From a virus, in the IMG/VR virus record IMGVR_UViG_3300031772_000003, positions 99,717-163,716 of that record: a DNA stretch of 64,000 bases; one strand, 5' to 3'. Position numbers and translations under genes: made by a program. Shown here in pieces: positions 15,901 to 64,000 of the stretch. Each line of letters opens with the position of its first letter. Positions within the stretch are counted from its first letter, which is position 1. The notes beneath the pieces were generated by a model that was given only the letters and a program-made list of their open reading frames with translations, searched no databases and had not been told where the DNA came from.

Positions 15901-18900
15901 GCCTGCCGGGGTGACGGAGTCCAGGGCGATCTCCTGAATGCCGGCCCTACCGGGCTGCTTGTCTGGGTGCCACGAGCCTGTCCGCCTAACGCGCCACACC
16001 CGCGTCGGCGTCGCAGAGGCCAAACTCGCCAAGGGCTTGCCCTTGAGGACCCGGAGGAGCTCTGCCCTGTCATAACGGGTGAGGGCCCGGAGGATTTGCT
16101 TGCCGGCCATCGGCACCGCGGGGTAATCCCCACCAAGTGCGAGGCGGAGAACCCTGGGGGTAACGTGCCGCTTAGCAAAGTCGAGGAGCCAATCAAGGCT
16201 CTTGAGAGTCTCGGCAGGGGTGTAGCCCATGTCGGGATGTACCCGCACGAGCTCGGCATAATGCTCCGGCCTCTCTTGAACCATCTCGATCCACAGGAGA
16301 AGGCCCCCCACATCATCCTCATCAGGGTCCACGTCGGTCAAGGCGGACCCTGGCACCTCGAAGACATAACCCCATGGCTCCTCCTCCACAGGTATGCCGG
16401 GGTGGTTAGCGTAGGAAACGGCCTCCCCAAAAGACGGAGTCAGGTAGACCGCTTCCCGCCGAGCCTGTTGCCATCCCCGTTCCCTGCTCCCCCCTAACGG
16501 CTTGAGGCCCTCCCGGACAATGGCATCCGCTGCGGCTTGAGTGGGGCACCCGTGGTAGTAGGCCGTGGCCCGCATCGGCTCATCGGGGGTTGGGGCCTCC
16601 ATGAGGGATTCAACGAGGTGGGCCAAGCTGCCGATGGACTCCTCAACACCCACGTCATATTCCTCATCATTCAGCTTTGCCCCATAGTAGCCAGGCTTCT
16701 CGTAATACTGGTGGGTCCAGTAGTCCAGCATGTCCTCTGGTACTGTGTCGGCCCGTTGCCACCGACCGCCGATGAGAATATCGTACTGGCTGGGCTCAAG
16801 CACTCGTTCCTCATAGTCGCCAGTGTCCACATATCTATCATTTGGGAATGCCCCACACTGTTGCAGCCTATCGTCCAAGAAATGAGCGGGGATACGGACG
16901 GCGACCCTACTCCGCGCGAGGGACGCATCATCGAGCCAATTAGCCTCGGTAGTAACATAGAACCTGTAGGTTCCCTCCTCATCGGGGTCCTGATCCGCCC
17001 ACCTGTTCTCCTCCCGGGGGATGTCCACAAAAGAGCCGGGCATATCACCGGGATGGGCGGTGTAGAGGCCCTGCCGCAACAACGCTCGCATATCACCTTT
17101 GGGATGATAGCGGTAGTAATAGCTTCCCCTGTGCTGCTGATGTGCAACCGTGTCCTCGGCCAAGGACTCCTCAGCCCTACCCACGAGCAAGGAGGACATG
17201 GGGACTCGTTCCCAGCCGTCTTGTGGGTAAAGGTTCTGCTCCGGGCCCTGGATCAGGTCCTTCCGCCACATCCTATCCGGCCTCAACACCCCGTGGTGAG
17301 CAATGACAATAGGGCTCAGGGCAATAAGCTCCTGCTTCTGCTCCGGTGTCATCAGGGTAAGCAGACACTTCGTGTTCGCTGCCAAGGGGTTCTCCGGGTT
17401 ATCCTGCTCAGCCATCTGCCACAACCAGTCAGGGCATGTCTGCCCGTACTGCCCATCCCACGAAAGAATATAGGACACCTCGGAGTCATCAGGCTCAACA
17501 TCCATGAGAGCGGAGCCGGACACCCCAAACACGTATCCATACCGCTCGTCACTATTCGAGGCATAGTCCGCGGCGACCCCAAAATCAGGTGTCAAGTACA
17601 CCCTACCACGAGTTGGGCAGGCTGCGGGTCCACCCATCTTATCCCACGGTTGACTATACGATCTATCGGGTTGAATCCCAGACCTCGCAATCGCCCGTGC
17701 CTTCCGGGTCGTGGGGCAGCCGTGGTAGTACATCTTCTCGGCCTGCTCCTGTGACGGAGGAGGGGATTCCTGAAGAGCCTCTGAGAGCAGGGAGGACAAG
17801 GGGTACGCTTTCCAACCAGACTGATCCCAATAGTGCCCCTCACCAGGATGACGCAAGCGCCAGACCCGTGTAGGCACCACAGGCCCCAGATGGGCCACGG
17901 TCAATGGCCTCTCCCGCATCACCTCCTGCTTTTGCTCCGGGGTCATTCGCCGGAGGATTTCACGGGGATCGGCCATGTGGGGGCTACCAGGATCGACCGC
18001 AGCAGCTATATCATGGAGCCAATCGGGGGTATCATCACCCCACAGGAGGCTGCCCACCCTATCCTCATCGGGCTCCACGTCCTGCAGGGCCGAACCGGGC
18101 ACCTCGAAGATGTAGCCATCAGGCGGGTAGTCATCGGGGATTCGCGGGTCATGCCCGGACGTAAGAGCATATTCCACAGCAACCCCAAAATCAGGTGTGA
18201 GGTACACGCGCCCCTGCATCGGCTCCACCCGCGGAGACCAATGACGACTCGGTAACTGATCCGGTCTGATCCCAAATCGAGCGATCTCATTGGCCCTTCT
18301 TGCGCTGGAACAACCATGGTAATAGGTCTGCTGGGTCTGTGTCTCAGAAGGGGGCGGGGCCTCGATGAGCATGGCCCGGTCAAGGGACCCAATAGATTCG
18401 CCTACCAACTCAAACAATAACTCCCCACCCGTTCCTCTTACAGGTGCCCCCTGCATCTCAGGGAACCGCTGCTCGATTGCCTCTACAGCATGATGCACCT
18501 TCAGTTTCGCCCCACGATCCCACCTCTCCCACATACCATAGAACTCAATTCCCCACTCCGCCTCCACAGCATCAGGTGGGTAGAAGCAACCCCGCTGAGA
18601 TATGATTTCCTGCTGATCCACATCACACAGCAGCCCACCTCCCTCAGTGTAGCCCAAGACATCCCCACGCTTGTGTCCCGCCCTCCGAAGCAACCAATCC
18701 AGGAGTATTGGCACATGATCTTCCACTGTGGTCATCGTGACCCTGTAGGTGTCCTCATCGCTACCCTCCTCATCATACTCCTCATCATCTTCTATCCCCC
18801 ACTCCCGCGGCTCCCCTTTGACAGACACCCGCAACAATGTTAGCAGGGCTTTACTGCCGTCCATTGTCAAGAGCCCAGTCTCGCGTGACCATACAAAGTA

Positions 18901-19239
18901 GACCTCGCCCAGCTTGCGGGAGAGCAGGGCTTCCATGGTCGGTCGCTGCCGGTAGCGCCGCTCCACCTCCGTAGCCGCAGCGTGCGCCCGCTCGTAGTCC
19001 CATCCCTGAAGCATCAGAGATCGCTCATAAGTTTCGTGGACCAGCACAGCGGGCATCTCAACGGGCTGGACGCCGTTGTCGATCCAGATTTCGTCTTGGG
19101 GGATGAAGGCGTAGCGGCAGCCATTCCCGCCCTGAGAGAAATCCAAGTCGTAGGTATCGCGGACGGCCCTGCCGTCCACGATCCAGACTTTGAGGCCCTG
19201 TGTCGTGCCCCAGTAATGGATGTAGGGGGAGGGCAGCAT
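9967..19239 (-). CDS. Giant modular polyvalent protein 1 (~3,090 aa): zincin-like, ART-like x~5, 2H phosphoesterase, Nudix, ParB-like, unnamed repeated domains
   Basis: Single ORF, start moved to MLPSPY after GAGGG RBS; motifs YYHG..VYLTP..DVEPDED x3, HETYH, HITI/HATV, GGRIEDEAPETAARREFIEETG, PPIVV..DGNHR, LYRAI..EQEIRL; 7 copies of the linker motif. Confidence 0.85.
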   Translation of the reverse strand: MLPSPYIHYWGTTQGLKVWIVDGRAVRDTYDLDFSQGGNGCRYAFIPQDEIWIDNGVQPVEMPAVLVHETYERSLMLQGWDYERAHAAATEVERRYRQRPTMEALLSRKLGEVYFVWSRETGLLTMDGSKALLTLLRVSVKGEPREWGIEDDEEYDEEGSDEDTYRVTMTTVEDHVPILLDWLLRRAGHKRGDVLGYTEGGGLLCDVDQQEIISQRGCFYPPDAVEAEWGIEFYGMWERWDRGAKLKVHHAVEAIEQRFPEMQGAPVRGTGGELLFELVGESIGSLDRAMLIEAPPPSETQTQQTYYHGCSSARRANEIARFGIRPDQLPSRHWSPRVEPMQGRVYLTPDFGVAVEYALTSGHDPRIPDDYPPDGYIFEVPGSALQDVEPDEDRVGSLLWGDDTPDWLHDIAAAVDPGSPHMADPREILRRMTPEQKQEVMRERPLTVAHLGPVVPTRVWRLRHPGEGHYWDQSGWKAYPLSSLLSEALQESPPPSQEQAEKMYYHGCPTTRKARAIARSGIQPDRSYSQPWDKMGGPAACPTRGRVYLTPDFGVAADYASNSDERYGYVFGVSGSALMDVEPDDSEVSYILSWDGQYGQTCPDWLWQMAEQDNPENPLAANTKCLLTLMTPEQKQELIALSPIVIAHHGVLRPDRMWRKDLIQGPEQNLYPQDGWERVPMSSLLVGRAEESLAEDTVAHQQHRGSYYYRYHPKGDMRALLRQGLYTAHPGDMPGSFVDIPREENRWADQDPDEEGTYRFYVTTEANWLDDASLARSRVAVRIPAHFLDDRLQQCGAFPNDRYVDTGDYEERVLEPSQYDILIGGRWQRADTVPEDMLDYWTHQYYEKPGYYGAKLNDEEYDVGVEESIGSLAHLVESLMEAPTPDEPMRATAYYHGCPTQAAADAIVREGLKPLGGSRERGWQQARREAVYLTPSFGEAVSYANHPGIPVEEEPWGYVFEVPGSALTDVDPDEDDVGGLLLWIEMVQERPEHYAELVRVHPDMGYTPAETLKSLDWLLDFAKRHVTPRVLRLALGGDYPAVPMAGKQILRALTRYDRAELLRVLKGKPLASLASATPTRVWRVRRTGSWHPDKQPGRAGIQEIALDSVTPAGEAPVIEDAMSADAHTVGELDLLVESLVPALIYQKARRWAQELNGKIPVGVDYTVTLREVIGQRTIDIIIQDLEASGLPTPKDPKVLDKFRWDLFGMRVHIKTHGGGLTYTPGADSGAGSGGMYSPGEGAIYLWVSDRRFVEEFAGIMTHETYHAIEDKARTDLGDWPTTYAGSRNAGYYFSWPGEQRAYATELAAEYWELVREKGPEARWEDTRKYRVLYQSVEGDPEAKALVDQIMELAKQEFQRLSTAGPAAYDPSRARPEPRGVPAEATVGGLDRMLSEAKRPVSWKREVAKATERGSTIYPNFDPYEDQDPADQAAELYFQIGHDQGGEDEDEESLIHTIWMWTGPGGLVINVRDHEGINLPGSHDIEFGPGVAGKLYKGRYDARTGWVSVVPPEAQRYRPIPEALLRDLKDAFNPKKIVTFEARTIGALDAALNEETHDYGCLQADLIGGAKEGILAQGMRVKDEDLMGDGRETEAHITIKYGLHTSDPEEVKKPLKGEERVTIKFGKLSSFPPSESSDNAAVLKYDIESAGLDRLNKLVSDNLKCTDTHPEYHAHATVAYLKPEAITRYVGDGSLTGKEFTIGTVTFSGKDGKKTEIKLGEQWQDLSYFQGRSMPGYSAIERTDRDFLTHWQDRQRADWKAQYELAVQFLMGKGRFVVDARTVGSLDMALSEGAYRIPSYSLATHYYLMAIKEQDEVEEWKRLGYPKDAEECERKAAKLLALAKRHAKRAGLPDDFYMDFPRIAPAAGIPFQPGWTAEALTEATDPRLATDTPEFRAWFKQSKVVDDVGQLDRVVCEVIGDDWPDELRQYLPDLLDAFPRRDYDSDEAWEASLYDAALRDSEQDEEDAAKKQEAEETYQAALAYRDALLLAADEVIQRCESVGLIHLGGQDNCHDFADSWYLQFELFDGEDGLEIRLSNHRQPAGGGAKLNQETGQFERPYGESDVDIRVIAGQAVDWTPLEDRLRELRIKASSVVESLSEAYASIEDVAENGTWIWGDGEIETGYFHAKAAYDKYAPAVPDDDRDDAAGIRLGIEHGGILVNLEDLTLFVRCAPPMAGLTSNAAYLTLLNLLAHTSAHFTVELTTEVGVESEVPGETMTVWEMKNLVRQWIQIAGQVQEESVQEARLSPYEIGPYGAWVWSDGSFDHGTNAWGGGLHHVARAERKYGKDGFQAALDAGSIRIRPGDDGSGFKVQIGSSKAPFAVAALQTLRELVAGQSPDDCPEVEFEWWDSNITHHHRYLSQEDAVDYLDRCVNAGALIEALTPHGTYYANTAGRHFWGDQGAGILPLCTSTGRFLLAYRSSEVNEPHTWGIWGGRIEDEAPETAARREFIEETGYTGSMELVPSYVYTTEGFQYSNFLGIVPEEFEPGHGWETEGHRWVTWEEMYRVKPQHFGLAALLKNAHEQIQKLVERDESGIQEQVGIDHPDLAPFPFEQVTAKTPDGKTFRVILKNPQERSGFLVGDEVDVEGEEVRRRVLVGKDKGKLADVTTQMIQLGAITSREPLRALKHTGKLVNARRYIDQHPVAEVVVENGYDQIQKLVEQGEQVTESLLEAAVPPLGQPVDDYEGKAPEHDWDATDNYGKWTQQTVAQFVGVKPDRFVYTAMVDLADLKPQRVEKQGAEALRKGEGELDPVFMEQAEEMLERWTAGETQYHRSGFDNWRDFLPWDPDDGYDDSDVELLARELQARSEVESYPEDELQRSFGRGFPPIVVTREVDGSVVINDGNHRADIWREQDYDVAPAWVNDDMARQASKRRPPTVRRAGVVKRVVDQGQQVAESFQPSTYSLAPELTDEEREEMVAAVLHDSVDEINNYADLAREDLGDDATDVEVDARAEKMVREEIERALDDALEGIAGMSDPLVLYRAIDVDPVDPATVWQHIRTRGIGVYWADEEDKAECHWGHGGPCVVLRASVPSKSVDWKGTLFARCQPSLGEEEQEIRLLKGRSVHVTGIQLPSGEWQPVNIRARA

Positions 19240-19249
19240 GTCGTTGCCC

Positions 19250-19579
19250 TCAATTAGGTGGGCCACTACGCATCTGCGTAGCAATGAGCAACCGAAGTGA
19301 TTCTATTTCCTTTGTCTGACTCTTGATCGCGTCCTTAATCTCTTTGAGGCTTTCATGAACCACCGTAGCTATGACCTCTGCTGCGACGGCCTTATGTTCT
19401 GCTACGGTCAAGCGCGCACTCACTTGTGACGACACGGCCCATGTAAAGGCGTAGGCCCCGCAAGGAAGAACGATGAGGAAGCCGAGCGCGGTGAGGAACG
19501 CCCATAAAGGCGTCCTACCCTTGACGCAAGCGGTGCGGTGCTGCTCACAAGTCTCGGTTGTCACAGGCGTAGGCATCAT
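19250..19579 (-). CDS. Small single-pass membrane protein with coiled coil (holin/XhlA-like)
   Basis: Hydrophobic LWAFLTALGFLIVLPCGAYAF then heptad segment. Confidence 0.5.
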   Translation of the reverse strand: MMPTPVTTETCEQHRTACVKGRTPLWAFLTALGFLIVLPCGAYAFTWAVSSQVSARLTVAEHKAVAAEVIATVVHESLKEIKDAIKSQTKEIESLRLLIATQMRSGPPN

Positions 19580-33958: not shown

Positions 33959-35041
33959 TTAGTCTCTCATTCCCAACTCGGTTTCGATGACTGCCCTGCT
34001 ACGATTGGCACTTCGCAGGTAATTCCACGCTTGGCTGACCCAACGGACTAGCCAGCCCCAAAAGCCCTCGGTGAGGGTCGCTTGGTCCACTACGGCCTCC
34101 TGGGGAGGTGTGGCCACGTCGGGGGCAGCGGCCTCCGGCGGGCGCTCGAACCTGAGAATCGGGTCCCCAGGAGCCAGGGTACGGCCAGGCGTGGTATGCT
34201 TGGCCAGGAGATCATCGATCAACTTCTTGAGGTCCGCTGACATATTGGCAATCTCGTCCACGACCTTATTGTAATGCCTAACTGGAGCGCTGATCCTCGC
34301 CTTCTGCTGCTCCAAATAGATGCGTATATCATCTACCCACATCTCCTGATTCGTGAACCCCGCCAGCAGTGGCATAAGCGTCTTCACCTTGTCCCCGTAC
34401 TCATTGGTGAGGCGGGCAACCTCCATCTTAGCCTCCCGCAACTGCTCACCAAGACGCACGGCGAGACGGGCCACTTCAATCAAGGTGTCGCGGAGTTCGC
34501 CACGAATGCCTGGAATTATGGTTTTGCCAGCCTCAGCGACGGGCGCAGCAGGTGCAGCAGGCGCGGGTTTGGGGGAGGGACGTGGCGCAGGAGCGGGGGC
34601 ATTCGCGGGCTCGGGCTCCTCAGCCAGCACGTCACGCACCACGGCATCCACGATGGATGCACGGTCGAGGGACTCCATGCCCCTCACCGTGCTCTTGCAC
34701 GGAATGCGCATGTGGACATGCTTGCCGCTGGGCAGCGTCTTGGCTACAGTGCTGGGAGCGATCTCCTCACCGCAGACCGAGCAGGTCTCCTCGACCTCAA
34801 CAGACTCACCCCTCGGCTTCGTCGCCCCTTTGCCCTTCTTGAACCCCGTCTTGGCGCGCAGGGCAAAGAGCAACTCCCCCATCTTCTCTTTGTTGTCTGG
34901 CTTGCCCTTGAGGGCCGCGATCTCTTTACGGAGTTGGGCCACGGTTTTGCCCTCATGCTCGCCTGTTTTCTTGATTTCCACGTCCTTATCCCACTTCTCG
35001 TTCAAGACGGCATCAACGGCCCATGCCAGATCGGTCTTCAC
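33959..35041 (-). CDS. Putative head-core protein
   Basis: GTGA overlap start; AVDAVLNE, VVRDVLAE, TLTE motifs; coiled coil. Confidence 0.55.
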   Translation of the reverse strand: MKTDLAWAVDAVLNEKWDKDVEIKKTGEHEGKTVAQLRKEIAALKGKPDNKEKMGELLFALRAKTGFKKGKGATKPRGESVEVEETCSVCGEEIAPSTVAKTLPSGKHVHMRIPCKSTVRGMESLDRASIVDAVVRDVLAEEPEPANAPAPAPRPSPKPAPAAPAAPVAEAGKTIIPGIRGELRDTLIEVARLAVRLGEQLREAKMEVARLTNEYGDKVKTLMPLLAGFTNQEMWVDDIRIYLEQQKARISAPVRHYNKVVDEIANMSADLKKLIDDLLAKHTTPGRTLAPGDPILRFERPPEAAAPDVATPPQEAVVDQATLTEGFWGWLVRWVSQAWNYLRSANRSRAVIETELGMRD

Positions 35042-35751
35042 GTCGTCACTCCTTGAATGGTTCTGAGGTCTTCGCGGCTCAGCACGCGGGCCCGGACGAC
35101 CCGGCCCACCAACGGTCCTGAGAGGACCGGCCCGGCGACGATGCCATAGGTCCCGGTGGTACTCACTTTCATATCCACGATCTGGGGCTTGGCCCCGAGA
35201 GTTCTCGCTTTCACCCTCTGGCCTGGCTTCACGCCCCAGGATGATTCCTTCACAACGTCCCACACGTCACCCTCACCCCCAATATCAGGATTGGTAGCGT
35301 GTGGAGAAATGGGCAAAGTCGTGGTGAGGGGTCTTCCCTCCGGGCCGATGGTAAGGCGGTCGGCGATTCTTTTGACCTTCCCATAGGAGATCATGCGCCC
35401 CAACCGGGTCCGCCTCTCATCACTCTTCACTTCATTCTGAAGATGGCCCTCAATCCGCATTGGAGCAAACTTACCGAAGGGGATACCTCGTGCGGGGTCC
35501 CACAACTGAGCCGCTTTGATGAGGCCCCAGTACGCCGTGGAGATCGCTTCGTCTTCCCCCAGGAAGTGGTGGTAGCGCTTGGCGATGTGAAGGGCGAGCT
35601 TGATGTTGTCCAGAACGAGTTGCTGCTGCACCGGGGTCAGTGGGACCGGCGGAGCGAGATCGGTCCGCTCCCCTCGGGCCTCCGCGATCACGAATGCGAG
35701 AGCATGGGTCAGGACTTCATCCCACTGCGGGTCAGTTGCGGCCATCGTCAC
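35038..35751 (-). CDS. Sigma-70 region-2 domain protein lacking an obvious region 4
   Basis: LVLDNIKLALHIAKRY...GLIKAAQLWDPARGIPFGKFA..RI matches the region 2 pattern. Confidence 0.75.
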   Translation of the reverse strand: MTMAATDPQWDEVLTHALAFVIAEARGERTDLAPPVPLTPVQQQLVLDNIKLALHIAKRYHHFLGEDEAISTAYWGLIKAAQLWDPARGIPFGKFAPMRIEGHLQNEVKSDERRTRLGRMISYGKVKRIADRLTIGPEGRPLTTTLPISPHATNPDIGGEGDVWDVVKESSWGVKPGQRVKARTLGAKPQIVDMKVSTTGTYGIVAGPVLSGPLVGRVVRARVLSREDLRTIQGVTT

Positions 35752-39150: not shown

Positions 39151-52747
<13,597 letters not shown>

Positions 52748-52751
52748 GATC

Positions 52752-53006
52752 TCAACCCTCCTTGTTGGCAAACTCCACCTTGGCAGGGAGGGCATCGAGA
52801 TCGGAGAGGATGTTGGCGAGGCGGGCCGCGGCCTCATTGAGATCAATGAGGGTATCGGCACGGCCAATAGGCTCAAGAAATGAGCGCATGATCGGGCTGT
52901 CCGCAGTGACCAGCGCGCGGCGCAGCGCATCCGCCGCGATTTGCAGGTCGGCCTCAAACTTGAACCGGACACCACCTGTGAGAACGGGGTGGGTACGTGC
53001 GGCCAT
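52752..53006 (-). CDS. Small helical hypothetical protein
   Basis: GAGGA RBS; contains DLNEA. Confidence 0.5.
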   Translation of the reverse strand: MAARTHPVLTGGVRFKFEADLQIAADALRRALVTADSPIMRSFLEPIGRADTLIDLNEAAARLANILSDLDALPAKVEFANKEG

Positions 53007-53270
53007 TGTTGCTTCCTCAAGCAGACAGGCACCGAGCCTCAAACTCTCGCTGGGCAATGGCTTCACGGAGCTTCGCGGGGTGCCAGAGGCGCACATGAGT
53101 ATGACATACGGGTCGCTTCACCAAACTCTGGGGGGTGTTTATAGCCCCTCCCACCCCTACTGAGCTTCCAGATCGTATTACCCCTCATGCGCTCGGAGCA
53201 AAGGCGCTTGATATGCTCGGGGCAGGGCTCACCTTTACGAGGCATTGCTGGTGTCCAGCTTAGGGGGGAG

Positions 53271-55412: not shown

Positions 55413-57563
55413 TCAACTTGTACCCTCCACCACCGCTTCCATTAGACTCTGGGGCCGCTTCACCCCTCCTATGGGGGCGACACCGGCAGCGGCCTTAACG
55501 ATCCGGACGCAATCGGCTGAGGGGGCCCAAATGGTACGGCCCTCGGTCAGCACCGAGCCATCCCACTTATAGGCCGCAACGGGGGGCAGTCCAGCAGGAG
55601 AGAGGTGCCAACTCGACATGTAGCCTGGGAACAACACGTCCTCCAAGAGCTTCCTGCCGGTGCTGAGACGCACCGCCGCGGCCAGCAACTCCGCGGGCTT
55701 GATCCCCTGCCAGTCCAGGGCCAATGCTTCGGGGTTGAACCTGTTGAGGTCGGCGGCGAGCCCACTGACCTGCAAGACGTACTTGGCCCACTCGTCTTTG
55801 GGCAGGCCCAACCGATCACCAGCGTCCGTGAGGGCCTCCACGGCCTCGGCGCGCATCTTCGCCGTCTCCGCGCGCTGTTTCTCCTCAAGGAAACTGATCG
55901 GGACCATGTGGATCTCGAACTCGTTACCGGGCTTGTAGGGATTGATGCCGCGCCAGCACAGATCGATCTGGAAGGCTCGGACCAATCCGGTAATGACGGC
56001 GCGCTGAATCCGCTTACACGACCTAGAAAATTGGATGTCAATTTGGCAGTTGTGTACGAAAGCCCCACAAGCCAAGGCGAAGTTGTGATGGCCATCCACA
56101 GACAAGTCATACACATCGGCAACACCGCCGGGCGCGACGGAGACAATCTTATGGTTACACGCCACCTTACCTAGCGAGACCCAACGGCCCCGCTTGTAGA
56201 AAGGCATTACCGAATCCCCCTCGCAAAGTGTACCAGCAGGCTTGTAGCTGCCGTCCCGCAGCATGACAGGGTGATCGGAGGTGCAGCGGAAGCTCTCCCC
56301 GTTATCCAGCACCACACAAAGAACAGGAGCCCCCTGTTTCGTCAGCCTGGCGGAGTGAGCAACCCCAGGACGCAGGCGGTGGTTCATGGGGTCTACGGCA
56401 TACACCCAAAACTCATCACCGGCCGCCCCCGCGGCAAGCTGCTCCATTGACAACACACGCCCATCCGCCAATGGAACCAGAGTATCACCCGTCAAACAGA
56501 GAGGACTTTGTCCCAGCACCCCGCCCCTAGCCTCTGAGAACCCCACATACTCCGGGGGCACCCTCACGGTGCCAAGGAAGCGCTTGCGGGCGTATTCCAC
56601 GTCTAAGACACGGCCCAAATCGGTGTTGCCCTTCAGGACATCCACGTCGACCATCTCGTCGTCAACATAAATGTCATCATCCACAGTGAACGGATCGATC
56701 TCGGATCGAACCTCCCCGGTAGTGGGGTCAATGAGCCGCTTCTTCCGGATCTCATCCCGCATCTCCTGCATCAGGCTACGGCGCTCCTCCGGCGAGAACT
56801 CCGCCGAGTTCTTAATCTTGAACCGGAGACGGTCCGGGGCGATTTTGAGGCGGAGAAGTATAAGGCTATCCTCTACCATTCTGAGTCTGCGAAAAGGCCG
56901 CCTTGCGGGCTGGAACACCGATGTTCCACCCTTCCCGGTGCGATCACGGCCCGACACCATGTACTGGACCAGGGACCACGGGAGCTCCGCTGGCTTGTCC
57001 TTGGAAGCGCTGTCCCCCACCTCCAAGCCAATCCTGTATCCAATCAGCCTGTTCACCTCATCCCACACAGGGGTCACGATCTTGGGGTCCAGGGGAACGG
57101 AACCAAACATGGGGCCCTTGAGCCCTGTCTTCGCATCCTCCTCCTGGAGGGGGCAATCGTAAGCCACCCCATACTTCGCGGTGTCCCTGGCGAGCCCGAA
57201 GACGTTGTCCTCGATCCTGAGCACGTCCCGCAGGAACTCCTCACCGAGCTTGGCGATGATCTCATTCTTGGAGGTGAGCCACACCGATCTGCCCGTAGCG
57301 TGGTCAATCTGCGTCGCGTCCTCGGCGTAGAGGTCGAGGATCGAGGACGGCAAGTCGTCCTCATCCATGACCTCATATTCCGCGAACCTCTGAATGCGGT
57401 CGGCACCGAGGCGCATTTGCCTGCGGAAGAACTCAGACACGAGGTCGGAGACGCCGCCCCGGCTCACGGCACCGGCGGGGCTGACCGGAGTGCGCGCGAG
57501 AGCGCCGCGCCGGCCCATACCCGTAGCGCGTTTAAGCCAGGACAAACCGGGGACACGAAGCAT
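55413..57563 (-). CDS. Portal protein (T4 gp20-like) with intein
   Basis: EYEVMD..ILDLYAEDAT and LRMVEDSLILLRLKIAPDR match the gp20 family; adjacent to TerL. Confidence 0.85.
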   Translation of the reverse strand: MLRVPGLSWLKRATGMGRRGALARTPVSPAGAVSRGGVSDLVSEFFRRQMRLGADRIQRFAEYEVMDEDDLPSSILDLYAEDATQIDHATGRSVWLTSKNEIIAKLGEEFLRDVLRIEDNVFGLARDTAKYGVAYDCPLQEEDAKTGLKGPMFGSVPLDPKIVTPVWDEVNRLIGYRIGLEVGDSASKDKPAELPWSLVQYMVSGRDRTGKGGTSVFQPARRPFRRLRMVEDSLILLRLKIAPDRLRFKIKNSAEFSPEERRSLMQEMRDEIRKKRLIDPTTGEVRSEIDPFTVDDDIYVDDEMVDVDVLKGNTDLGRVLDVEYARKRFLGTVRVPPEYVGFSEARGGVLGQSPLCLTGDTLVPLADGRVLSMEQLAAGAAGDEFWVYAVDPMNHRLRPGVAHSARLTKQGAPVLCVVLDNGESFRCTSDHPVMLRDGSYKPAGTLCEGDSVMPFYKRGRWVSLGKVACNHKIVSVAPGGVADVYDLSVDGHHNFALACGAFVHNCQIDIQFSRSCKRIQRAVITGLVRAFQIDLCWRGINPYKPGNEFEIHMVPISFLEEKQRAETAKMRAEAVEALTDAGDRLGLPKDEWAKYVLQVSGLAADLNRFNPEALALDWQGIKPAELLAAAVRLSTGRKLLEDVLFPGYMSSWHLSPAGLPPVAAYKWDGSVLTEGRTIWAPSADCVRIVKAAAGVAPIGGVKRPQSLMEAVVEGTS
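56049..56498 (-). mobile_element. Mini-intein (150 aa) in portal
   Basis: CLTGDT block A, TSDHP block B, VYDLSV block F, VHN/C splice junction; no endonuclease. Confidence 0.9.
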
Positions 57564-59794
57564 CAGTGGGTTCCTATGCTAACGGCACCACGGTAGCGGT
57601 TCATGTAGGCCCTATGGCCAACCCGAACCGACAAATCAACTCCCTCCAGGACATGTGCGGCCACAGCCACGGCGGCGTCCAAAACATCCTTGGAGTTGTG
57701 TACAAACACCCCAGCAGACAAGGCAAAGTTACTGTAGTCATCAACCTCTAGATCATACGCAGGGACACTCGTACTCAGGGACCTAACTGAAATAACTTTG
57801 TGGTTCTGGCCTGCTCCATAATACCTGTAGAGGGGCATCAGTGAGACCCCACGCTGTAGCTCGCCCGCAGGGCAATAGCTCCCATCTCGTAGCATGAATG
57901 GATGATCTGCGGTACACACCACTGCATGGTCATTGTCCAAGACCACCTCAACCATCTGGGCAGTCTTGGTCAATCTAGCTGCCCTTGCCTTGCCAGGCAC
58001 TACCTCGCCACTAGGCTTACAGGAGTAGACCCAGAACTCCTCGCCCGCGGCTCCCTCAGCAAGCTCCTGCATAGTGAGTGTTGTACCGTTCAACAAGGGA
58101 ACCCTCGTATGCCCCGCCAGACAACCACCAGTCGAGTGGTCTATTACGCCGGCCGTGGTGTCCTTCAGTACCTGCTCGGCCTCGGCCAGAACAGGAGCGT
58201 ATCTATACCAGTTTACGCGCCGGTCCAGGACCGCCTTTCGGAACGTGAGGTAGGGATCGAGGCCGACGCTGAACTGTGAGGCGTTGATCCCGGCGACATT
58301 GAGCATCTGGATGTTCTGGCGCGATTGGAACTGATCGTAGGTCACGGCCCCGATGGGAAGGCCCTGCTCCCGGAGCCATTTGATGAACTGCACCACCGCG
58401 GTCAAGTCCACCTCCTCACCCAACGGAGCCTTGACACGCAGAAGCAGATCGTAGTAGACCCCAGCCCCCGTAACACCGTACATTCTGTGGCCCACAGCAA
58501 GGCCCAAGGCATCCCACTTCAAGCCGATATCGACGTGGATGTGGCGGGCCATCCCCGGGTTGACCAGCGGCACGGGGACGGAATGGGCAATGTGAAAGAG
58601 CCTGGCGGGGGCAACCACCTCCTCGATTCCGCGGTTGCGGCCCACGCCAAGATAGCGAACCTCATCCACCGTAGTAGGCGAGACGCGCAGGGGATCGACG
58701 CAATTCTCCAAACAGGCCGCGTCCGGAAAGAGACGCTGGACTGAAGCAACGCTGAACCCACCAAGGTCCATCAGGGCCTCACCGGGGTCCTGCACGAACT
58801 CATTGTATAGCTCAATGGGAACGGAGGCGATACGAACCCCTGTGGGTGGCACCTCACCGGGCTCTAGGATGACAGACCGATGGGTCTCGTCCCCGATAAC
58901 GACATCAAAAGTCTCGCCACTAAACCGTCCCGAACCACCGCGGGCGTCCCAGAGCGTCATTGACGTGACGTGGGTATGGGGATCGTCCTGGTGTTTCCGC
59001 TCGTGCTCATCCAAAAAACTGCTCGGGGTCTCCTGGGATGACATCAAGATCATAAGACAAGGCAGCCTGCCCCCCCACTGGATGAACCTACTAACCATAC
59101 GCCGGCGCGATGCCCTGTAGAGGTCGTGGGCCCTGGTTTGTTCCCCAGGTTTCCCGCTAAGTTTCCGCTTGTGCCGATAGAAGTTGGCCTCATCCAGTGT
59201 CACCCCAAAGAGGTTCTCACCCTGGACATGCCCGGCCAACGAGCCGCTATGGATGACAACCCGCTTCTGCGGCCACACAATCTTATCCCCAGACCTAGCC
59301 TGCCGGGGGTAGTGTTTTTGGAACCACGGCGATTCGTCAACCCATGTCTGGAGCGCATCGATCCCACTCTCTGCCCGCTCCAATGTGATGTTGAGGATTG
59401 CAAAGAATATCCATGAGCCACGCAGCAATCCATAGTACTCCGCTGGGCTGCCTTTGAGAAGCAATTGGCAGTAGGCTTTGTACAAGATTGCCGCAGAGGC
59501 CGTCGTTGTCTTAAATGTGCCGATTGCCCCCTTCATGATCCACTCCACAATGGGACTATCGGGGGCCAGGACGATCTCAAGTTCGCGCAGCCACGTCTCG
59601 CTACATGCCCCCATGAACTTGCCCAGATAGTGCTCGTCCTGAAGGAATTGGCGGATCGGGACCGGGGGCTCCTCATAGTCCCACGCCCATGCCGCCGCCA
59701 CTGCAGCGTCAACACGCCCGTCCGCCAAGTGCTCGGCGAGCCAAGCCCTAGCCTGGGGGGAGAGCGATTCGAGTTCCGGGACCAGTGTGTCCAT
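57563..59794 (-). CDS. terL: Terminase large subunit with intein
   Basis: GAIGTFKTT Walker A, VTLDE Walker B, HVDIG and SKDVLDA nuclease motifs; start moved to MDTLVP. Confidence 0.85.
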   Translation of the reverse strand: MDTLVPELESLSPQARAWLAEHLADGRVDAAVAAAWAWDYEEPPVPIRQFLQDEHYLGKFMGACSETWLRELEIVLAPDSPIVEWIMKGAIGTFKTTTASAAILYKAYCQLLLKGSPAEYYGLLRGSWIFFAILNITLERAESGIDALQTWVDESPWFQKHYPRQARSGDKIVWPQKRVVIHSGSLAGHVQGENLFGVTLDEANFYRHKRKLSGKPGEQTRAHDLYRASRRRMVSRFIQWGGRLPCLMILMSSQETPSSFLDEHERKHQDDPHTHVTSMTLWDARGGSGRFSGETFDVVIGDETHRSVILEPGEVPPTGVRIASVPIELYNEFVQDPGEALMDLGGFSVASVQRLFPDAACLENCVDPLRVSPTTVDEVRYLGVGRNRGIEEVVAPARLFHIAHSVPVPLVNPGMARHIHVDIGLKWDALGLAVGHRMYGVTGAGVYYDLLLRVKAPLGEEVDLTAVVQFIKWLREQGLPIGAVTYDQFQSRQNIQMLNVAGINASQFSVGLDPYLTFRKAVLDRRVNWYRYAPVLAEAEQVLKDTTAGVIDHSTGGCLAGHTRVPLLNGTTLTMQELAEGAAGEEFWVYSCKPSGEVVPGKARAARLTKTAQMVEVVLDNDHAVVCTADHPFMLRDGSYCPAGELQRGVSLMPLYRYYGAGQNHKVISVRSLSTSVPAYDLEVDDYSNFALSAGVFVHNSKDVLDAAVAVAAHVLEGVDLSVRVGHRAYMNRYRGAVSIGTH
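57695..58123 (-). mobile_element. Mini-intein (143 aa) in terminase nuclease domain
   Basis: CLAGHT, TADHP, AYDLEV, VHN/S. Confidence 0.9.
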
Positions 59795-60437
59795 CTTGCT
59801 GCATTCCCTGGAGACGGGCGAGGACACGCCGGATCGCCTCACGGTCTGATGGGGGCAATACCGCCTCCTCCCCACCCAACGGCTCTTGGTCGGCTCCAAG
59901 TTCCTTGAGAAGGGTTTCCAACCGTTGCGCCAGCGTCGCGGTCCCACGGCTATCCTTGTCCACCGCCGCGGTAATCATCGCCAAGTCTGCCGCAATCGAC
60001 TGCTCCAGCCGTGCCTGGAGAGTAGTGACCTCGACGGTCTTGAGCGTCCCCAGCCCCTTGAGGTCCTCAGCCCGGCGCTTCAACTCAGCATCCACGTCCA
60101 GCAGAGCGGAGTTGAGCCCGTTGATCCGGTCGATTCGCGTCAGCATCAAGAGGTGAAAGGCCAGCCTGATCTTGACATCCTGTTCCCGGAGCCTAGCTAG
60201 GGCGGCAGCCGGCAGGTCTCTGTTCTCGCTGCCGTCCTCCAGCCATTGAGCCACAGCGCCTAGCAACTCGATCAGGGTCTGGCGGCGCACCCTAATCGGT
60301 GGCACCCTCAGCGCCGTGTGGATGTGCAGATGCCCACCCAACGCCTTACGGCTCGTAAATATCTTGGGGCAGTGGGGGCAGGGGTGACACTCCACTAACG
60401 CTGTCGCCGCTGTTGTCGCCGCCCCTTCTTCAGGCAT
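59748..60437 (-). CDS. C2H2 zinc-finger coiled-coil protein; candidate small terminase
   Basis: CPHCPKIFTSRKALGGHLHIH; position directly upstream of terL. Confidence 0.55.
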   Translation of the reverse strand: MPEEGAATTAATALVECHPCPHCPKIFTSRKALGGHLHIHTALRVPPIRVRRQTLIELLGAVAQWLEDGSENRDLPAAALARLREQDVKIRLAFHLLMLTRIDRINGLNSALLDVDAELKRRAEDLKGLGTLKTVEVTTLQARLEQSIAADLAMITAAVDKDSRGTATLAQRLETLLKELGADQEPLGGEEAVLPPSDREAIRRVLARLQGMQQDGHTGPGTRIALPPG

Positions 60438-60475
60438 GGCCCAACCTCATTCCGAACCTACCCTCCCCCCGTATA

Positions 60476-61123
60476 TTATACCCCGCGTTCGCCAATAAGC
60501 AACCGACCATATCTGCACAGAGCCAGAGCATCGGCTCTACCATCCGCGTTCCCCACCGCTGCGTCGGGGAACCAGTCTCGCACCTTCGATTTCACCTCAG
60601 CCTTCACTCCCCGCTTCCGCTCCGCCAGCAGTCGCCGATGCTCCTTTAATGCCGCTGCGTCCTCATCTTTTGCCTTCTCCTCCTCATCCTCAGTAAGCGC
60701 CAGCCCGTCCATAGAGACACGAGCCTGAGCCTTCGGCCTCTTTGGGGCAAGGGGCATGACGATGCCCAGGGCCTTCTGCCACTTTCTGCCCCCCACCTCC
60801 ACGAGTTGCAGCGGGGGCAGGCCAGGAGCGCGGTGCCGCTGCATCGACCTGATACGGTCCCTGAGAGCCCCATAGTTCACGGCAAATGTCCAACCACTCA
60901 CCGAGCCCTGGCCCGGGAATGCGTGCTGCTCCTCCAAGATAACACAGTCAATCGCATGCCCTGTTTCGGCCTCCCACCCCAGCAGTGTCGTCTCGACCAC
61001 ATCCGTATCCACGTCGTTACCCCGACCCCTAGCGGGCATGTCGAGGAAATGTACCTGCCCCGTCTCTACACACAAACCCGCAACGGCCCCCGCCTTTCCA
61101 GGATCGATCCCCGCGATCAACAC
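60476..61123 (-). CDS. RuvC-like Holliday junction resolvase
   Basis: IAGIDPG, ILEEQ, FPGQG, DGRADALAL; AAGGAG RBS. Confidence 0.8.
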   Translation of the reverse strand: MLIAGIDPGKAGAVAGLCVETGQVHFLDMPARGRGNDVDTDVVETTLLGWEAETGHAIDCVILEEQHAFPGQGSVSGWTFAVNYGALRDRIRSMQRHRAPGLPPLQLVEVGGRKWQKALGIVMPLAPKRPKAQARVSMDGLALTEDEEEKAKDEDAAALKEHRRLLAERKRGVKAEVKSKVRDWFPDAAVGNADGRADALALCRYGRLLIGERGV

Positions 61124-61137
61124 GGTATTTCTCCTTC

Positions 61138-62952
61138 TCAAAATACATCATTCCACAAGTCCTGCCACGTCCCCTCATCGGCAAGCAAGCCGCGAGCCTT
61201 GCGTTCAAGGCTGCCGTAGGCAGCCACCACCACGGGCCTCTCCAGACCAGTAGCGTCCACAAGGGTGGCGACCTTGTTGCCTACGCCAAGGCCACCCTGC
61301 TCGCCCAGGAGGCACTGCAGCAGGAGCGCCTCGGCCTCATTGAGCATGCCCTCTAGCTCCCCGAGCAGAACAGCGGGATCGACGGGGACGGCAGAGGGGG
61401 CCGCGTAGTCCTCGGAGACCCCACCCGGAGCGCGCCTGTCCCGCTCCCTATAACGAGCCCGCAACTTGTCGAGGAAGCGATACCCAAGCATCGCATGGAG
61501 AAAACCGACCTTGTTAGTGGTCCCTTGCCACTTCGGTTGGCCCATCCACTGGAGCGTAAGTTGCCACCCATCCTGGTACAGGTCGTCGTAGGACTCGATG
61601 TAGGCATAATGAGCGGCAACGCCGCGGATCAGGTGGTCCACCGTCTCGAATGAGATGCCACCGATCTGTAGTGGTGTCTCGTCTACCCTGGTTTGCGGCG
61701 CATGGAGCCCCGAAGGCAGACCTTCCTCTGCCTCAACCCCCCATGGCGGGGGGCACAGCCGACCAGTTATAGGCTGCTCGCCTGCAGGAATCCCACCTGC
61801 ATCGTGCCTCTCGGCGGGGTTGGCCACCGCTGCTGGACACAGCCCTGCAAGGGCGGCTTGGGGCCGGAGCACGCGCTTCAGCCCCGGCCACCGCTTGCGG
61901 CTCAGAGCAATGGACACACCTCTTCCTTCAAGGTTCAGTATGCCCTTCTCCATGCCGCAAGTGGCCTTGAAATCCATCCGTTCCTTGAACCATAGGCCGC
62001 GGCGCGCAATGATCATCGCCGCAGCCCCCTGGTCCGACAGGGAGTACATGCGTCGGTACTTGAGGCTGCCCAACTCCACCATGAACGCCGTATCCACCTC
62101 CATGGCCTCGACGCCACGCCGCATCGCTCGTGACAACAGCGCCTCCACGGCCTCTCGATGCCGGGTCTGATCCCTATGGGGTCCCGCGATCCTGCCTCGG
62201 GTCTCCACGACGAGCTTACGTCCCCGCTTCTCCGCTTCCCGTAATATGTCCGCCGCGCCGGCTCGCACGTCACTGAGCCGCTTGCCGGGCCCCGCACCCC
62301 ACCTCACCGCTGCACCTACATGGTGCCCCACCACATTCCCGTCCGGCCCCACCTCCAGCACAGCCACGCCTAGTGGCCCAATCGTGACCCCCAGAGCCCC
62401 ATGGTTGATCCGCACCGGAGGCTTGGACGCATCCCACTCGATCCGAAACACGAAGGAGCCGTCGCGGCGGAGCAAGCGGACGGCATAGCAGGTGGGATCG
62501 GGCTGGAACTTGGTGGGCACGTAGGCCCGCCCCTCAATCCAGCGGCCCCGTGGATCGCGCACCCGCAAGACGCTGCCGCGGAGTTGGATGTGGGGATTGC
62601 CACCACGGCCCCGGTCGCCACGTGAGTACAACTGAGAGTTCCGGCGAGCCTGCCAGTCCTCACGGCTAATCCGTCCCGCTTGGAGGTCATCCCAAGCGCT
62701 GCGGCCCCCAAAGACAAAATTGGGGTAGCGCACTACCTGCACCATCGAACATGCGTCGTTGATGTAGCCCTGGTTCAGTGGCTCCATGTAGCGGCGCTTG
62801 ACGTATCGCCTGACCTTGTTACCACGGAGGCCGTGTTTCTGGTACGCTTGGCAGGCACTGCGGACAGCAGAGCATTGGAGCCGCATTAACTCCAATACCC
62901 GCTCCGCATCGGGCGGGGAGAACCAGACGGAACCGTGCGCGACGCACCTCAA
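61138..62952 (-). CDS. Degenerate TnpB-related (IS200/IS605 accessory) domain fused to ECF-type sigma domain
   Basis: LMR..SAVR, LYSRGD..GGNP, GVTIGP, LVVE, KY...SLS..AAAMIIARRG; C-terminal DDLYQDGW..FLDKLR (region 2) and LNEAE..TGLE (region 4). Confidence 0.65.
   Translation of the reverse strand: MRCVAHGSVWFSPPDAERVLELMRLQCSAVRSACQAYQKHGLRGNKVRRYVKRRYMEPLNQGYINDACSMVQVVRYPNFVFGGRSAWDDLQAGRISREDWQARRNSQLYSRGDRGRGGNPHIQLRGSVLRVRDPRGRWIEGRAYVPTKFQPDPTCYAVRLLRRDGSFVFRIEWDASKPPVRINHGALGVTIGPLGVAVLEVGPDGNVVGHHVGAAVRWGAGPGKRLSDVRAGAADILREAEKRGRKLVVETRGRIAGPHRDQTRHREAVEALLSRAMRRGVEAMEVDTAFMVELGSLKYRRMYSLSDQGAAAMIIARRGLWFKERMDFKATCGMEKGILNLEGRGVSIALSRKRWPGLKRVLRPQAALAGLCPAAVANPAERHDAGGIPAGEQPITGRLCPPPWGVEAEEGLPSGLHAPQTRVDETPLQIGGISFETVDHLIRGVAAHYAYIESYDDLYQDGWQLTLQWMGQPKWQGTTNKVGFLHAMLGYRFLDKLRARYRERDRRAPGGVSEDYAAPSAVPVDPAVLLGELEGMLNEAEALLLQCLLGEQGGLGVGNKVATLVDATGLERPVVVAAYGSLERKARGLLADEGTWQDLWNDVF
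61690..61860 (-). ncRNA. Hairpin-dense segment; candidate omega-RNA scaffold overlapping the ORF linker
   Basis: GCAGG/CCTGC, CAGCC/GGCTG, CCCCCC/GGGGGG, AGGCAGA/TCTGCCT stems right after the TnpB-like coding region. Confidence 0.45.
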
Positions 62953-62987
62953 CAGGCCACTCCTCAAGCCCTGCTGATCGCGGGCAG

Positions 62988-63461
62988 TTACCGCATTATA
63001 TCACCATCGGGACCGAATGTCAAGCCCCCACGCTTCCGTTCCACCAAATTGCTGCGTCGCTTCCGGCCCGCGACAAGCGTTACCCCAAGCAGTTCCACGG
63101 GGTCACTCACAACGAGCAGATCGGCACCGGTGACCTCCACTGATGTCCGGGTGCGAAGAGCGTTGATCCTCGCGGTGCCGTAGGTCCCTGGGGTGCCGGC
63201 ATCCTCCGCGAACCGTTGGATCACCATCATCGCATCCTCGCGGGGGGCATCGAACTCAAAGACGGTATAGGAGTCCGCGTACCGCACCCTGATCCAACCA
63301 TTCTTCAGCACCCGACGCAGAATCTCCTCCCGCGTTCCAATACTATCCCCCCGGGCCAAACCAAAGCGGGAGGGGGTCACCAGCACAGCGGCCAAGTGCT
63401 CCTCGACCGGGAACGCCCGGCCATCACGGATTCTCAGCCACCAACCCTCACCAATGGGCAC
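62988..63461 (-). CDS. Stand-alone GW..DG..H..GWIR domain protein
   Basis: GEGWWL..DG..EEH..KNGWIRV; GGAGG RBS; same pattern repeated in both giant proteins. Confidence 0.6.
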   Translation of the reverse strand: MPIGEGWWLRIRDGRAFPVEEHLAAVLVTPSRFGLARGDSIGTREEILRRVLKNGWIRVRYADSYTVFEFDAPREDAMMVIQRFAEDAGTPGTYGTARINALRTRTSVEVTGADLLVVSDPVELLGVTLVAGRKRRSNLVERKRGGLTFGPDGDIMR

Positions 63462-63501
63462 CGGTAACCTCCATGTCCTACAGAATCAAAGTGGGCACCA
63501 A

Positions 63502-64000
63502 CTACGCCCTCTTCCCCCCACGCCACACCCCATCCGCCAAGCGGTACCCACGGCAGATAGGGGCGAAGCCCTTGGGTGCAGCCACGAGGCTGCTGAGGTT
63601 GAGGTAGCCCCCTGCTTTGGGGGCAAAGCCCTCGGGTGCAGCCACGAGGCTGCCGAGGTAAAGGTTGCCCCCTACTTTGGGGGCGAAGCCTTCGGGTGCA
63701 GCCACGAGGCTGCGGAGGTCGAGGCTGCCCCCTGCTTTGGGGGCGAAGCCCTCGGGTGCAGCCACGAGGCTGCTGAGGTCGAGGTCGCCCCCTGCTTGGG
63801 GGGCGAAGCCCTCGGGTACAGTGGTGAGGCTGCTGAGGTAGAGGTAGCCCCCTGCTTTGGGGGCGAAGCCCTCGGGTGCAGCCACGAGGCTGCTGAGGTT
63901 GAGGTAGCCCCCTGCTTTGGGGGCAAAGCCCTCGGGTGCAGCCACGAGGCTGCCGAGGTAAAGGTTGCCCCCTACTTTGGGGGCGAAGCCTTCGGGTGCA
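63502..64000 (-). CDS. LRR-like repeat protein, copy B (5' end beyond window)
   Basis: Frame open to window edge; same 20-aa repeat and near-identical C-terminus as copy A. Confidence 0.8.
   Translation of the reverse strand, partial: APEGFAPKVGGNLYLGSLVAAPEGFAPKAGGYLNLSSLVAAPEGFAPKAGGYLYLSSLTTVPEGFAPQAGGDLDLSSLVAAPEGFAPKAGGSLDLRSLVAAPEGFAPKVGGNLYLGSLVAAPEGFAPKAGGYLNLSSLVAAPKGFAPICRGYRLADGVWRGGKRA
63561..64000. repeat. 60-nt tandem repeat array B
   Basis: 60-nt period; 63581-63700 repeated exactly at 63881-64000 (300-nt higher-order period). Confidence 0.95.

Follow-up and report, generated by a model that had tools for sequence, protein, structure and literature searches.

A single-copy phage gene joining a nuclease-dead TnpB, an embedded guide-RNA-like scaffold and a sigma-like domain: a tentative case for an RNA-guided sigma factor

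Can a phage hold, in one polypeptide, both the means to find DNA with a guide RNA and the means to start transcription there? The question is raised by a gene in IMGVR_UViG_3300031772_000003, the 163,716-bp genome (61% GC) of a large sediment phage, in an IMG/VR record judged 92% complete. The stretch analysed, called the window below, is the final 64 kb (64,000 nt) of that record, and coordinates refer to it unless the whole genome is named. The gene lies on the minus strand and encodes a protein of three parts: a TnpB-like portion whose nuclease centre has been dismantled, a linker whose coding sequence doubles as an RNA scaffold, and a domain that resembles extracytoplasmic function (ECF) sigma factors. 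The initial annotation had proposed a possible RNA-guided transcription activator, composed of a dead TnpB, an omega-RNA-like segment and an ECF-like sigma factor in one frame. This anatomy is borne out, and the gene is a real, single-copy gene for one polypeptide. As to function, we infer RNA binding, guide-directed finding of DNA and sigma-driven recruitment of RNA polymerase for a gene known from one phage, and an RNA-guided sigma factor is the favoured reading, held tentatively.

The gene is a single open frame running from 62967 to 61138. It has its own GAGGAG ribosome-binding site (RBS), and the stop codon of the preceding open reading frame (ORF) lies ~35 nt away at 62988-62990, all as first described. 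An alternative start at TTG 62967 would give 609 codons, and residue numbers follow this 609 numbering throughout. TTG 62952 is the likely start because relatives begin MRxVAHG at the equivalent place; the protein in the database (P0002) has 604 amino acids (aa). Logan's assembly of the sample contains a contig, at a depth of ~26, that agrees letter for letter over 60900-63100. Since this assembly is independent, assembler error is excluded. The single public DNA run that contains the stretch, for which no RNA run is listed, is probably the source sample, so that the agreement is not biologically independent.

The sigma-70-type promoter ~43-71 nt upstream of the start codon is the sole perfect consensus in the 163,716-bp genome, in which two other sites come within one mismatch per hexamer. 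By our own estimate, a perfect site would arise by chance at 61% GC with a probability of ~0.007. The promoter overlaps the final codons of an upstream 157-aa ORF of unassigned function (62988-63461).

The relationship of the N-terminal part to TnpB, already proposed in the initial annotation, is real and is seen in homologues, in a family profile and in the modelled structure; local library scans miss it. Neither the whole protein nor any of its three parts had a match in Pfam, NCBIfam and PHROGs scans, and phmmer with the single fusion sequence against the PDB gave nothing meaningful. Sequence searches recover homologues of ~435-460 aa that cover residues 1-~420 of the fusion protein and carry Pfam PF27229 ('SSO2105_N') and the JGI name 'IS605 OrfB'. 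A profile of 49 family sequences matches PDB chains of Cas12f and TnpB from RuvC-II to the PxYTSQ motif (E 1.5e-6); a second stretch, not significant alone, aligns the GxD of the family with the RuvC-I motif of Cas12f. The AlphaFold2 (AF2) model, a check suggested at the outset, has a predicted local distance difference test (pLDDT) value above 90 over residues 1-370. Its N-terminal part finds Cas12f, dCas12f, Cas12k and ISDra2 TnpB as top Foldseek matches (E 8e-9 to 1e-5, probability 1.00, ~380-440 aligned columns). By alignment and model, the predicted fold of residues 1-~372 is that of TnpB and Cas12f (WED-REC-RuvC). There is no C4 zinc finger (TNB), since neither the fusion protein nor any relative has a Cys motif after the TS motif.

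The family is mostly viral and has His at the RuvC-III position (Asp-Glu-His). In the TnpB major clade RIIIr-4, His likewise replaces the RuvC-III Asp, the C4 zinc finger is absent and viruses are enriched (Altae-Tran et al. 2023, PMC10691335). All three traits are shared by the relatives of the fusion protein, and the family fits this clade as matched through its published description, not by tree placement. The relatives also have a 3' scaffold with a sharp boundary between scaffold and guide. The fusion protein differs from RIIIr-4 in lacking the RuvC-I Asp, the RuvC-III His and neighbouring motif residues, and in having gained a C-terminal sigma-like domain.

The RuvC-I Asp is indeed replaced by Thr, as the initial annotation had read, and this loss of the nuclease is specific to the fusion protein. 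Residue counts (Table 1) were made over 48 aligned relatives reaching down to ~24% identity. Across ~150 family hits, the signature D-N-E-L-T-S-H is near-universal and the T-G-E-R-M-V-Q of the fusion protein is unique. Asp195 is retained in all but one of the ~150 hits covering the position, the exception being a fragment with Glu. The same D-N-E-L-T-S-H is found at all six further RNA-bearing loci whose genes are complete enough to score. Where a RuvC catalytic triad would read D-E-D or D-E-H, the fusion protein has T195, E255 and Q313, which is not a catalytic set as judged by alignment. Furthermore, ~10 aa have been deleted after the retained Glu255.

These losses are not spread evenly over the TnpB half. 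Among the 32 columns that are at least 90% conserved, 24 are retained in the fusion protein; all eight losses fall in RuvC motifs and none in WED/REC. Measured against the same outgroup set, WED/REC identity is 48% in the fusion protein and 52% in its active sisters (ratio 0.93), while RuvC identity is 37% and 56%, respectively (ratio 0.66). In a quick maximum-likelihood tree, the fusion protein is nested in an active clade as sister to P0003-P0005 (approximate likelihood-ratio test 93), on a branch ~3-fold longer than the sister branches. Neutral decay of the TnpB part had been named as a finding that would speak against a regulator. Loss of conserved residues is confined to the RuvC centre, with WED/REC as conserved as in active sisters; the protein is a singleton on a long branch. 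The pattern resembles that expected for a DNA binder retained after cutting was lost, not even decay. Read in this way, domain-specific conservation argues for a function of the TnpB half, short of proof.

The second part of the gene is defined by RNA rather than by protein. When the 3' ends of homologous genes are aligned, nucleotide conservation continues past their stop codons and ends sharply at the family-invariant AAACCAGG, beyond which the sequences are unrelated. RNAalifold, applied to 13 sequences, gives 41 pairs, of which 33 have compensatory double changes. Paired cells amount to 92.7%, a value that drops to 38-51% once partners are shifted by 1-3 columns, and none of 500 shuffles reached the observed pairing values. 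A covariance model built from 11 homologues, with the query left out, has one match in the window, at 61859-61687 (-), which is full length and scores 84.6 bits (E 1.7e-22). What was first noticed as a hairpin-dense linker (61690-61860) is therefore a conserved structured RNA, as shown by covariation. No further scaffold copies were found in the phage genome, where the fusion protein is likewise single-copy, and an Rfam scan of 60400-63600 at E<=10 returned chance rows only.

Nearly all helices of this RNA still pair in the phage gene. An extra covarying hairpin lies just upstream of the scaffold (61861-61881); in relatives this hairpin is flanked by a helix whose 3' partner is missing here. 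As protein, the scaffold encodes a disordered linker of aa ~370-427, and the AF2 model has pLDDT <50 over ~374-464. The structured RNA has the hallmark features of an omega-RNA scaffold followed by a 3' guide, that is, of an OMEGA-type RNA for which protein binding is predicted. The boundary between scaffold and guide lies where the initial annotation had placed it, and the candidate guide begins GTAGACGAGACACC at 61686 downward.

How the TnpB gene and the sigma part came to share a frame can be read from the family. Most relatives, among them six of eight RNA-bearing loci examined, stop at the TAA of TAAACCAGG; the remaining ends fall 51 or 194 nt before it or 43 nt beyond it. In the phage gene this TAA has become CAA in the same frame, and translation therefore runs on through the former flank into a ~170-aa sigma-like domain. 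The residues after Gln425 (VDETPLQIGGISFETVDHL...) align with the N-terminus of P0093, a stand-alone 171-aa protein. An internal start for the sigma part, a check put forward in the initial annotation, was not found, in that no in-frame start codon with an RBS stands ahead of it. The origin shown by these alignments is that the right end of a TnpB element abutted a phage sigma gene and that its stop codon was then lost. Thus, the alternative raised at the outset, an insertion sequence reading through into a sigma gene, is correct as history.

Is the third part truly a sigma factor? Its predicted layout begins with sigma-2-like helices (aa ~440-512), from which a linker modelled with low confidence leads to a helix-turn-helix (HTH)-like sigma-4 part (aa ~531-595). 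The sole detectable homologue of residues 435-592 is P0093 (E 7e-14, 34% identity), which aligns with the sigma part along its length without breaks. A two-sequence profile matches region 2 of M. tuberculosis SigE at E 0.03. Foldseek with the AF2 domain model places ECF sigma factors as the top 8 and as 10 of the 11 best matches, with alignments that span their full length (E 0.07-0.7). In a VIA-align comparison with 48,161 chains, sigma region-2 domains make up most of the top rows (Z 6-7.9); they include 9n9q_C, the sigma of a dCas12f complex, and 7d7d_F, from the T4 gp45-dependent transcription activation complex. Language-model atlas features reach 0.96 to sigma-24/ECF clusters, and the first match of the atlas fold search is an ECF sigma cluster (TM 0.44). 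Finally, hhalign aligns the domain colinearly, over 137 columns (E 0.1), with the 160-aa sigma of the same phage that Pfam does recognise.

These six weak lines are concordant, and the C-terminal domain is probably sigma-like. The initial annotation had claimed a complete ECF-like sigma factor with regions 2 and 4. The sigma-like character stands on concordant matches; regions 2 and 4 do not reach formal significance, and the sigma-4 half, modelled with pLDDT <60, is the less certain part of the assignment. Pfam and NCBIfam scans gave no match for aa 440-609 at E<=10 or for P0093 at E<=1, neither to PF04542 nor to PF08281/PF04545, whereas the same curated models do detect other sigma genes of the phage. 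A word-indexed search with aa 430-609 found no homologues, the two-sequence profile found P0093 only, and sigma-domain scans of viral and metagenome contigs found none; the homologue fragments P0101 and P0154 are on short, uninformative contigs.

The domain resembles the small phage and ECF sigmas (the phage's Sigma70_r2 protein; M. tuberculosis SigE, SigH and SigL; T4 gp55) in its size of ~170 aa, its helical layout with two domains, a region-2 helix of DDLYQxGW type and a predicted C-terminal helix-turn-helix. It differs from them in that it reaches no Pfam sigma model, has one detectable homologue and has no start codon of its own. The phage carries other sigma-like genes. The clearest encodes 160 aa (Sigma70_r2, E 7e-12; genome 19693-20175 (-), or L133:7694-8176). 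A 237-aa protein has a sub-threshold region-2 match (window 35038-35751 (-)), and a Sigma70_r4_2 match lies inside a 967-aa open frame (genome ~40024-40122 (-)).

Taken together, the three parts suggest how an RNA-guided sigma factor might work. Host RNA polymerase would transcribe the fusion gene early, from the consensus sigma-70 promoter. Part of the transcript would be trimmed to scaffold and 3' guide and held by the WED/REC half, and the ribonucleoprotein would open a matching DNA site into an R-loop but leave it uncut. The tethered sigma domain would then bring core RNA polymerase, and transcription would start nearby. Stated in full, this would mean that a phage independently reinvented RNA-guided initiation by means of a dead Asp-Glu-His-clade TnpB, an omega RNA and an ECF-like sigma in a single polypeptide, with promoters chosen by a ~12-20-nt guide and not by -35 and -10 elements; in this complete form the proposal is possible, though doubtful. 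The guide might send polymerase to host genes or to the cluster of packaging genes in the phage itself.

Several observations weigh against an RNA-guided sigma factor. If the mRNA were trimmed to a guide RNA, the sigma part could no longer be translated from it. The 'guide' is DNA that once flanked the element, where the sigma gene began, and it is now under coding constraint: the same nucleotides encode VDETPLQ, at the start of the sigma part. Over its 20 nt it matches the genome perfectly nowhere but in the fusion gene itself. The RNA has drifted at nucleotides that are invariant in relatives (CTCACAG loop to CTTGCAG, GAAAGG to GGAAGG), and its terminal hairpin is shortened. Much of the conservation in the TnpB half could predate a recent inactivation. 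All structural, profile and language-model matches to sigma factors are below formal significance, with no Pfam match, and the one sigma-domain homologue, P0093, is a separate gene. Lastly, no other fused or dead member was found in protein sets of 5.8 billion and 1.8 billion sequences or in scans of viral, metagenome and genome contigs.

Those scans did add relatives. The viral scan for the RNA pattern returned 114 stretches, most of which, when fetched, had no TnpB-like gene, and a few of which were new true members. The metagenome scan for the RNA pattern returned 26 stretches, eight of them confirmed by the covariance model, and the genome-contig scan returned three short contigs of metagenome-assembled genomes, none fused. 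All new members with a complete gene have the active signature and none is fused. The homologue search recommended in the initial annotation thus found the same fusion in no collection searched. The literature searched describes no natural TnpB-sigma fusion; it does describe dCas12f with a separate sigmaE, and TldR repressors.

A target search in the phage genome, also recommended, gave no significant match beyond the fusion gene. The best other match to the guide is exact over its first 12 nt (GTAGACGAGACA), at genome 17201-17212 (-) (L133:5202-5213). The site is 27 nt into a 106-aa ORF, at a distance of 2.5 kb downstream from the other sigma gene of the phage, and in both this ORF and the fusion gene the 12 nt are read in frame as VDET. 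Since 5-8% of all 12-mers in the genome occur more than once, the match at genome 17212 is a lead and not evidence; as a guide target the site was rejected, the match being within chance expectation. Two 11/12 matches just upstream of gene starts are also within chance, and one of them is an RBS look-alike.

The main rival explanation is that the gene product is a sigma factor with a TnpB passenger. A TnpB element would have landed on the start of a sigma gene, and the stop-loss would have rescued sigma expression, now driven by the strong promoter upstream. Both the TnpB half and its RNA would be tolerated relics, with no RNA-guided step, and loss of the nuclease would have removed a hazard. 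This is a serious candidate, although on balance unlikely. It accounts for the stop-loss origin and for the missing start of the sigma part, and it agrees with the lack of a significant guide target, with the drifted invariant nucleotides and shortened terminal hairpin of the RNA, and with a singleton on a long terminal branch. The genomic setting of P0093 points the same way, as this gene is followed by a 200-aa gene much as the sigma part is followed by the 221-aa resolvase. A sigma gene without TnpB among close relatives had been named as a refuting observation; P0093, the sole sigma-domain homologue, does stand alone. What the passenger explanation predicts is even decay, and this is not the pattern observed: WED/REC is conserved like that of active sisters and the losses of conserved residues are all in the nuclease centre. 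Moreover, more than 1,270 nt of frame are still open, nearly all RNA helices pair, and multiple two-step codon changes at catalytic positions imply that there was time enough for decay elsewhere.

An improbable alternative is a TldR-type RNA-guided repressor or other DNA-binding regulator: dead TnpB and RNA together would block a promoter or mark a site, and the C-terminal domain would be a helical add-on, such as an RNA polymerase decoy or an anti-sigma-like module, and not a working sigma. Dead TnpBs of the TldR type do repress by RNA-guided binding, phage-borne ones included, and a sigma identity below significance with a poorly modelled sigma-4 half leaves room for such an add-on. On the other hand, all independent weak lines point to sigma-2 or ECF sigma and to no other fold, and no promoter-adjacent target was found. 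Least probable of all is a non-functional remnant kept open by chance or an assembly artefact. A singleton on a long branch at 61% GC, where chance ORFs are lengthened, would fit this reading; against it stand a perfect promoter and RBS, domain-specific conservation, an intact RNA, a sigma part aligning unbroken with P0093 and an identical second assembly at ~26x, albeit probably from the same sample.

Table 1. Features of the fusion gene and its surroundings, in window coordinates; residue counts refer to the 48 aligned relatives.
Feature	Coordinates	Strand	Basis or remark
Sigma-70-type promoter, TTGACA-17 nt-TATAAT	62995..63023	(-)	TG ahead of -10; 12/12 matches
RBS GAGGAG	62960..62965	(-)	Sequence; 7 nt ahead of TTG 62952
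Fusion ORF	61138..62952	(-)	604 codons + TGA; TGA at 61140-61138
N-terminal WED/REC-like half, aa 6-190	62398..62952	(-)	AF2 pLDDT >90; conserved
RuvC-like domain without catalytic residues, aa 191-372	61852..62397	(-)	Alignments
Residue 195 (GVTIGP)	62385-62383		Asp in 48/48 relatives; Thr in fusion
Residue 197			Asn in 48/48 relatives; Gly in fusion
Residue 255	62205-62203		Glu in 48/48 relatives; Glu retained in fusion
Residue 257			Leu in 47/48 relatives; Arg in fusion
Residue 296	62082-62077 (M296/V297)		Thr in 45/48 relatives; Met in fusion
Residue 297	62082-62077 (M296/V297)		Ser in 47/48 relatives; Val in fusion
Residue 313	62031-62029		His in 47/48 relatives; Gln in fusion
Omega-RNA-like scaffold	61687..61859	(-)	Within coding sequence; at least 6 covarying helices; ends AAACCAGG
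CAA, Gln425	61693..61695	(-)	Replaces family stop TAA in TAAACCAGG, same frame
Candidate guide, first 20 nt past scaffold: GTAGACGAGACACCACTACA	61667..61686	(-)	Family similarity ends exactly here
ECF-sigma-like domain, aa ~436-609	61141..61662	(-)	Profile, fold and language-model matches
RuvC-type Holliday-junction resolvase, 221 aa	60476..61123	(-)	PHROG 1770; next gene after fusion

The initial annotation had found no transposase, and a search for Y1_Tnp or Resolvase (Y1 or serine transposases) across the 164-kb genome gave no match. With neither TnpA nor several genome copies, the gene does not qualify as an IS200/IS605-type mobile element. The resolvase gene that follows has a likely start at GTG 61123 with an RBS GAAGGAG, and after it come a C2H2 zinc-finger protein, an intein-bearing 794-aa gene and a T4-like portal. 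Of the downstream genes first named, the resolvase and the portal are borne out; for the 794-aa gene, library scans matched the intein alone, and its identity as a terminase is not confirmed. Intein splicing domains occur in the T4-like portal gene (55413-57563 (-)) and in the adjacent 794-aa gene (57563-59947 (-)), and likewise in an AAA ATPase gene elsewhere in the genome (L133:5673-7634 (-)). There are also two giant ORFs, at 9967-19284 (-) (3,105 codons) and 40823-53032 (-) (4,069 codons). A synteny search by tblastn and hidden Markov models (sigma domain, resolvase, large intein gene, portal) against 13 homologue loci gave no matches, so that synteny is not conserved among them.

Active members of the family show features of their own. 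They occur twice in IMGVR_UViG_3300023257_000008 (188 kb; L010/L044, L023) and twice in IMGVR_UViG_3300037067_027602 (156 kb; L007, L014), and one such pair is 77% identical over 1.4 kb, with different sequences after AAACCAGG. Two copies per phage contig suggest that the elements move or home within phage genomes without TnpA. When two copies in one contig were compared, the left element boundary was too fuzzy to yield a target-adjacent motif (TAM). At another locus, the TnpB-like gene is shortened (L011:4476-5588) and the RNA scaffold (6530-6714) lies ~1 kb downstream, as if there had been an insertion between them. A 54-aa HTH_17/MerR-like gene of excisionase type overlaps the start of some active members (L003:505-669; the 37.9-kb P0018 contig) and recalls the HTH partner of dCas12f loci. 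In L009 and L023, a promoter-like TTGAC(A/T)-17-TACTCT ends ~7 nt before the ATG, a placement that, judged by sequence, would give a leaderless or very short-leader mRNA.

RNA-guided activation of transcription has so far come from one lineage, the dCas12f of Bacteroidota with its separate sigmaE. If the phage gene is an RNA-guided sigma factor, the coupling of sigma to RNA-guided DNA binding would be a recurrent evolutionary solution, phages would gain a reprogrammable way of steering host RNA polymerase, and the locus would represent a very compact natural 'CRISPRa' module of ~600 aa and a ~190-nt RNA. Even if the TnpB half is a passenger, the locus documents how a one-base stop-loss welded a mobile-element nuclease to a host gene, and a guide-RNA scaffold is defined for a large, uncharacterised clade of viral TnpBs.

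Two known systems invite comparison. TnpB clades with dead nucleases act as RNA-guided regulators, among them TldR (Wiegand et al., 10.1101/2023.11.30.569447; 10.64898/2026.09.22.753285). The fusion protein and TldRs are both TnpB derivatives that have lost RuvC residues and kept an omega-RNA-type guide RNA; both are non-mobile, and some TldRs are phage-borne as well. By its sequence, the fusion protein would therefore qualify as nuclease-dead, guide-RNA-bearing and immobile in the TldR sense. TldRs differ in belonging to other TnpB clades and in acting alone, by steric exclusion of RNA polymerase, without a sigma domain. Their guides match promoter regions of defined genes, whereas no such match was found for the fusion.

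The closer comparison is with dCas12f-sigmaE of Bacteroidota (Hoffmann et al., PMC12259090; 10.1101/2025.06.10.658880; PDB 9n9q, 9n9c). There, dCas12f and an ECF sigmaE carry out promoter-independent, RNA-guided transcription that needs no promoter motifs; a guide need only exceed 10 nt, and transcription begins 46 bp from the TAM (PMC12259090). The fusion protein does not belong to the dCas12f clade, as it nests among active D-E-H, zinc-finger-less viral TnpB-like proteins. It is one polypeptide with its RNA inside the coding sequence, in a lytic-type large phage and not on a Bacteroidota chromosome, and its locus, known from sequence alone, has no guide arrays, HTH partner or identified targets. 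What the two have in common is the pairing of a dead miniature effector of TnpB/Cas12f fold with an ECF-type sigma, which in the phage is covalent and in which the sigma identity comes from concordant sub-threshold matches. Each has a single guide RNA, in which a multi-stem scaffold is followed by a guide at the 3' end; that of the fusion is predicted. The structural models agree with this likeness, the N-terminal part matching 9n9c_A at E 4e-7 and the C-terminal part the sigma chain of 9n9q at Z 6.9. Should the favoured reading hold, the phage gene would be a covalent, independently evolved counterpart of dCas12f-sigmaE.

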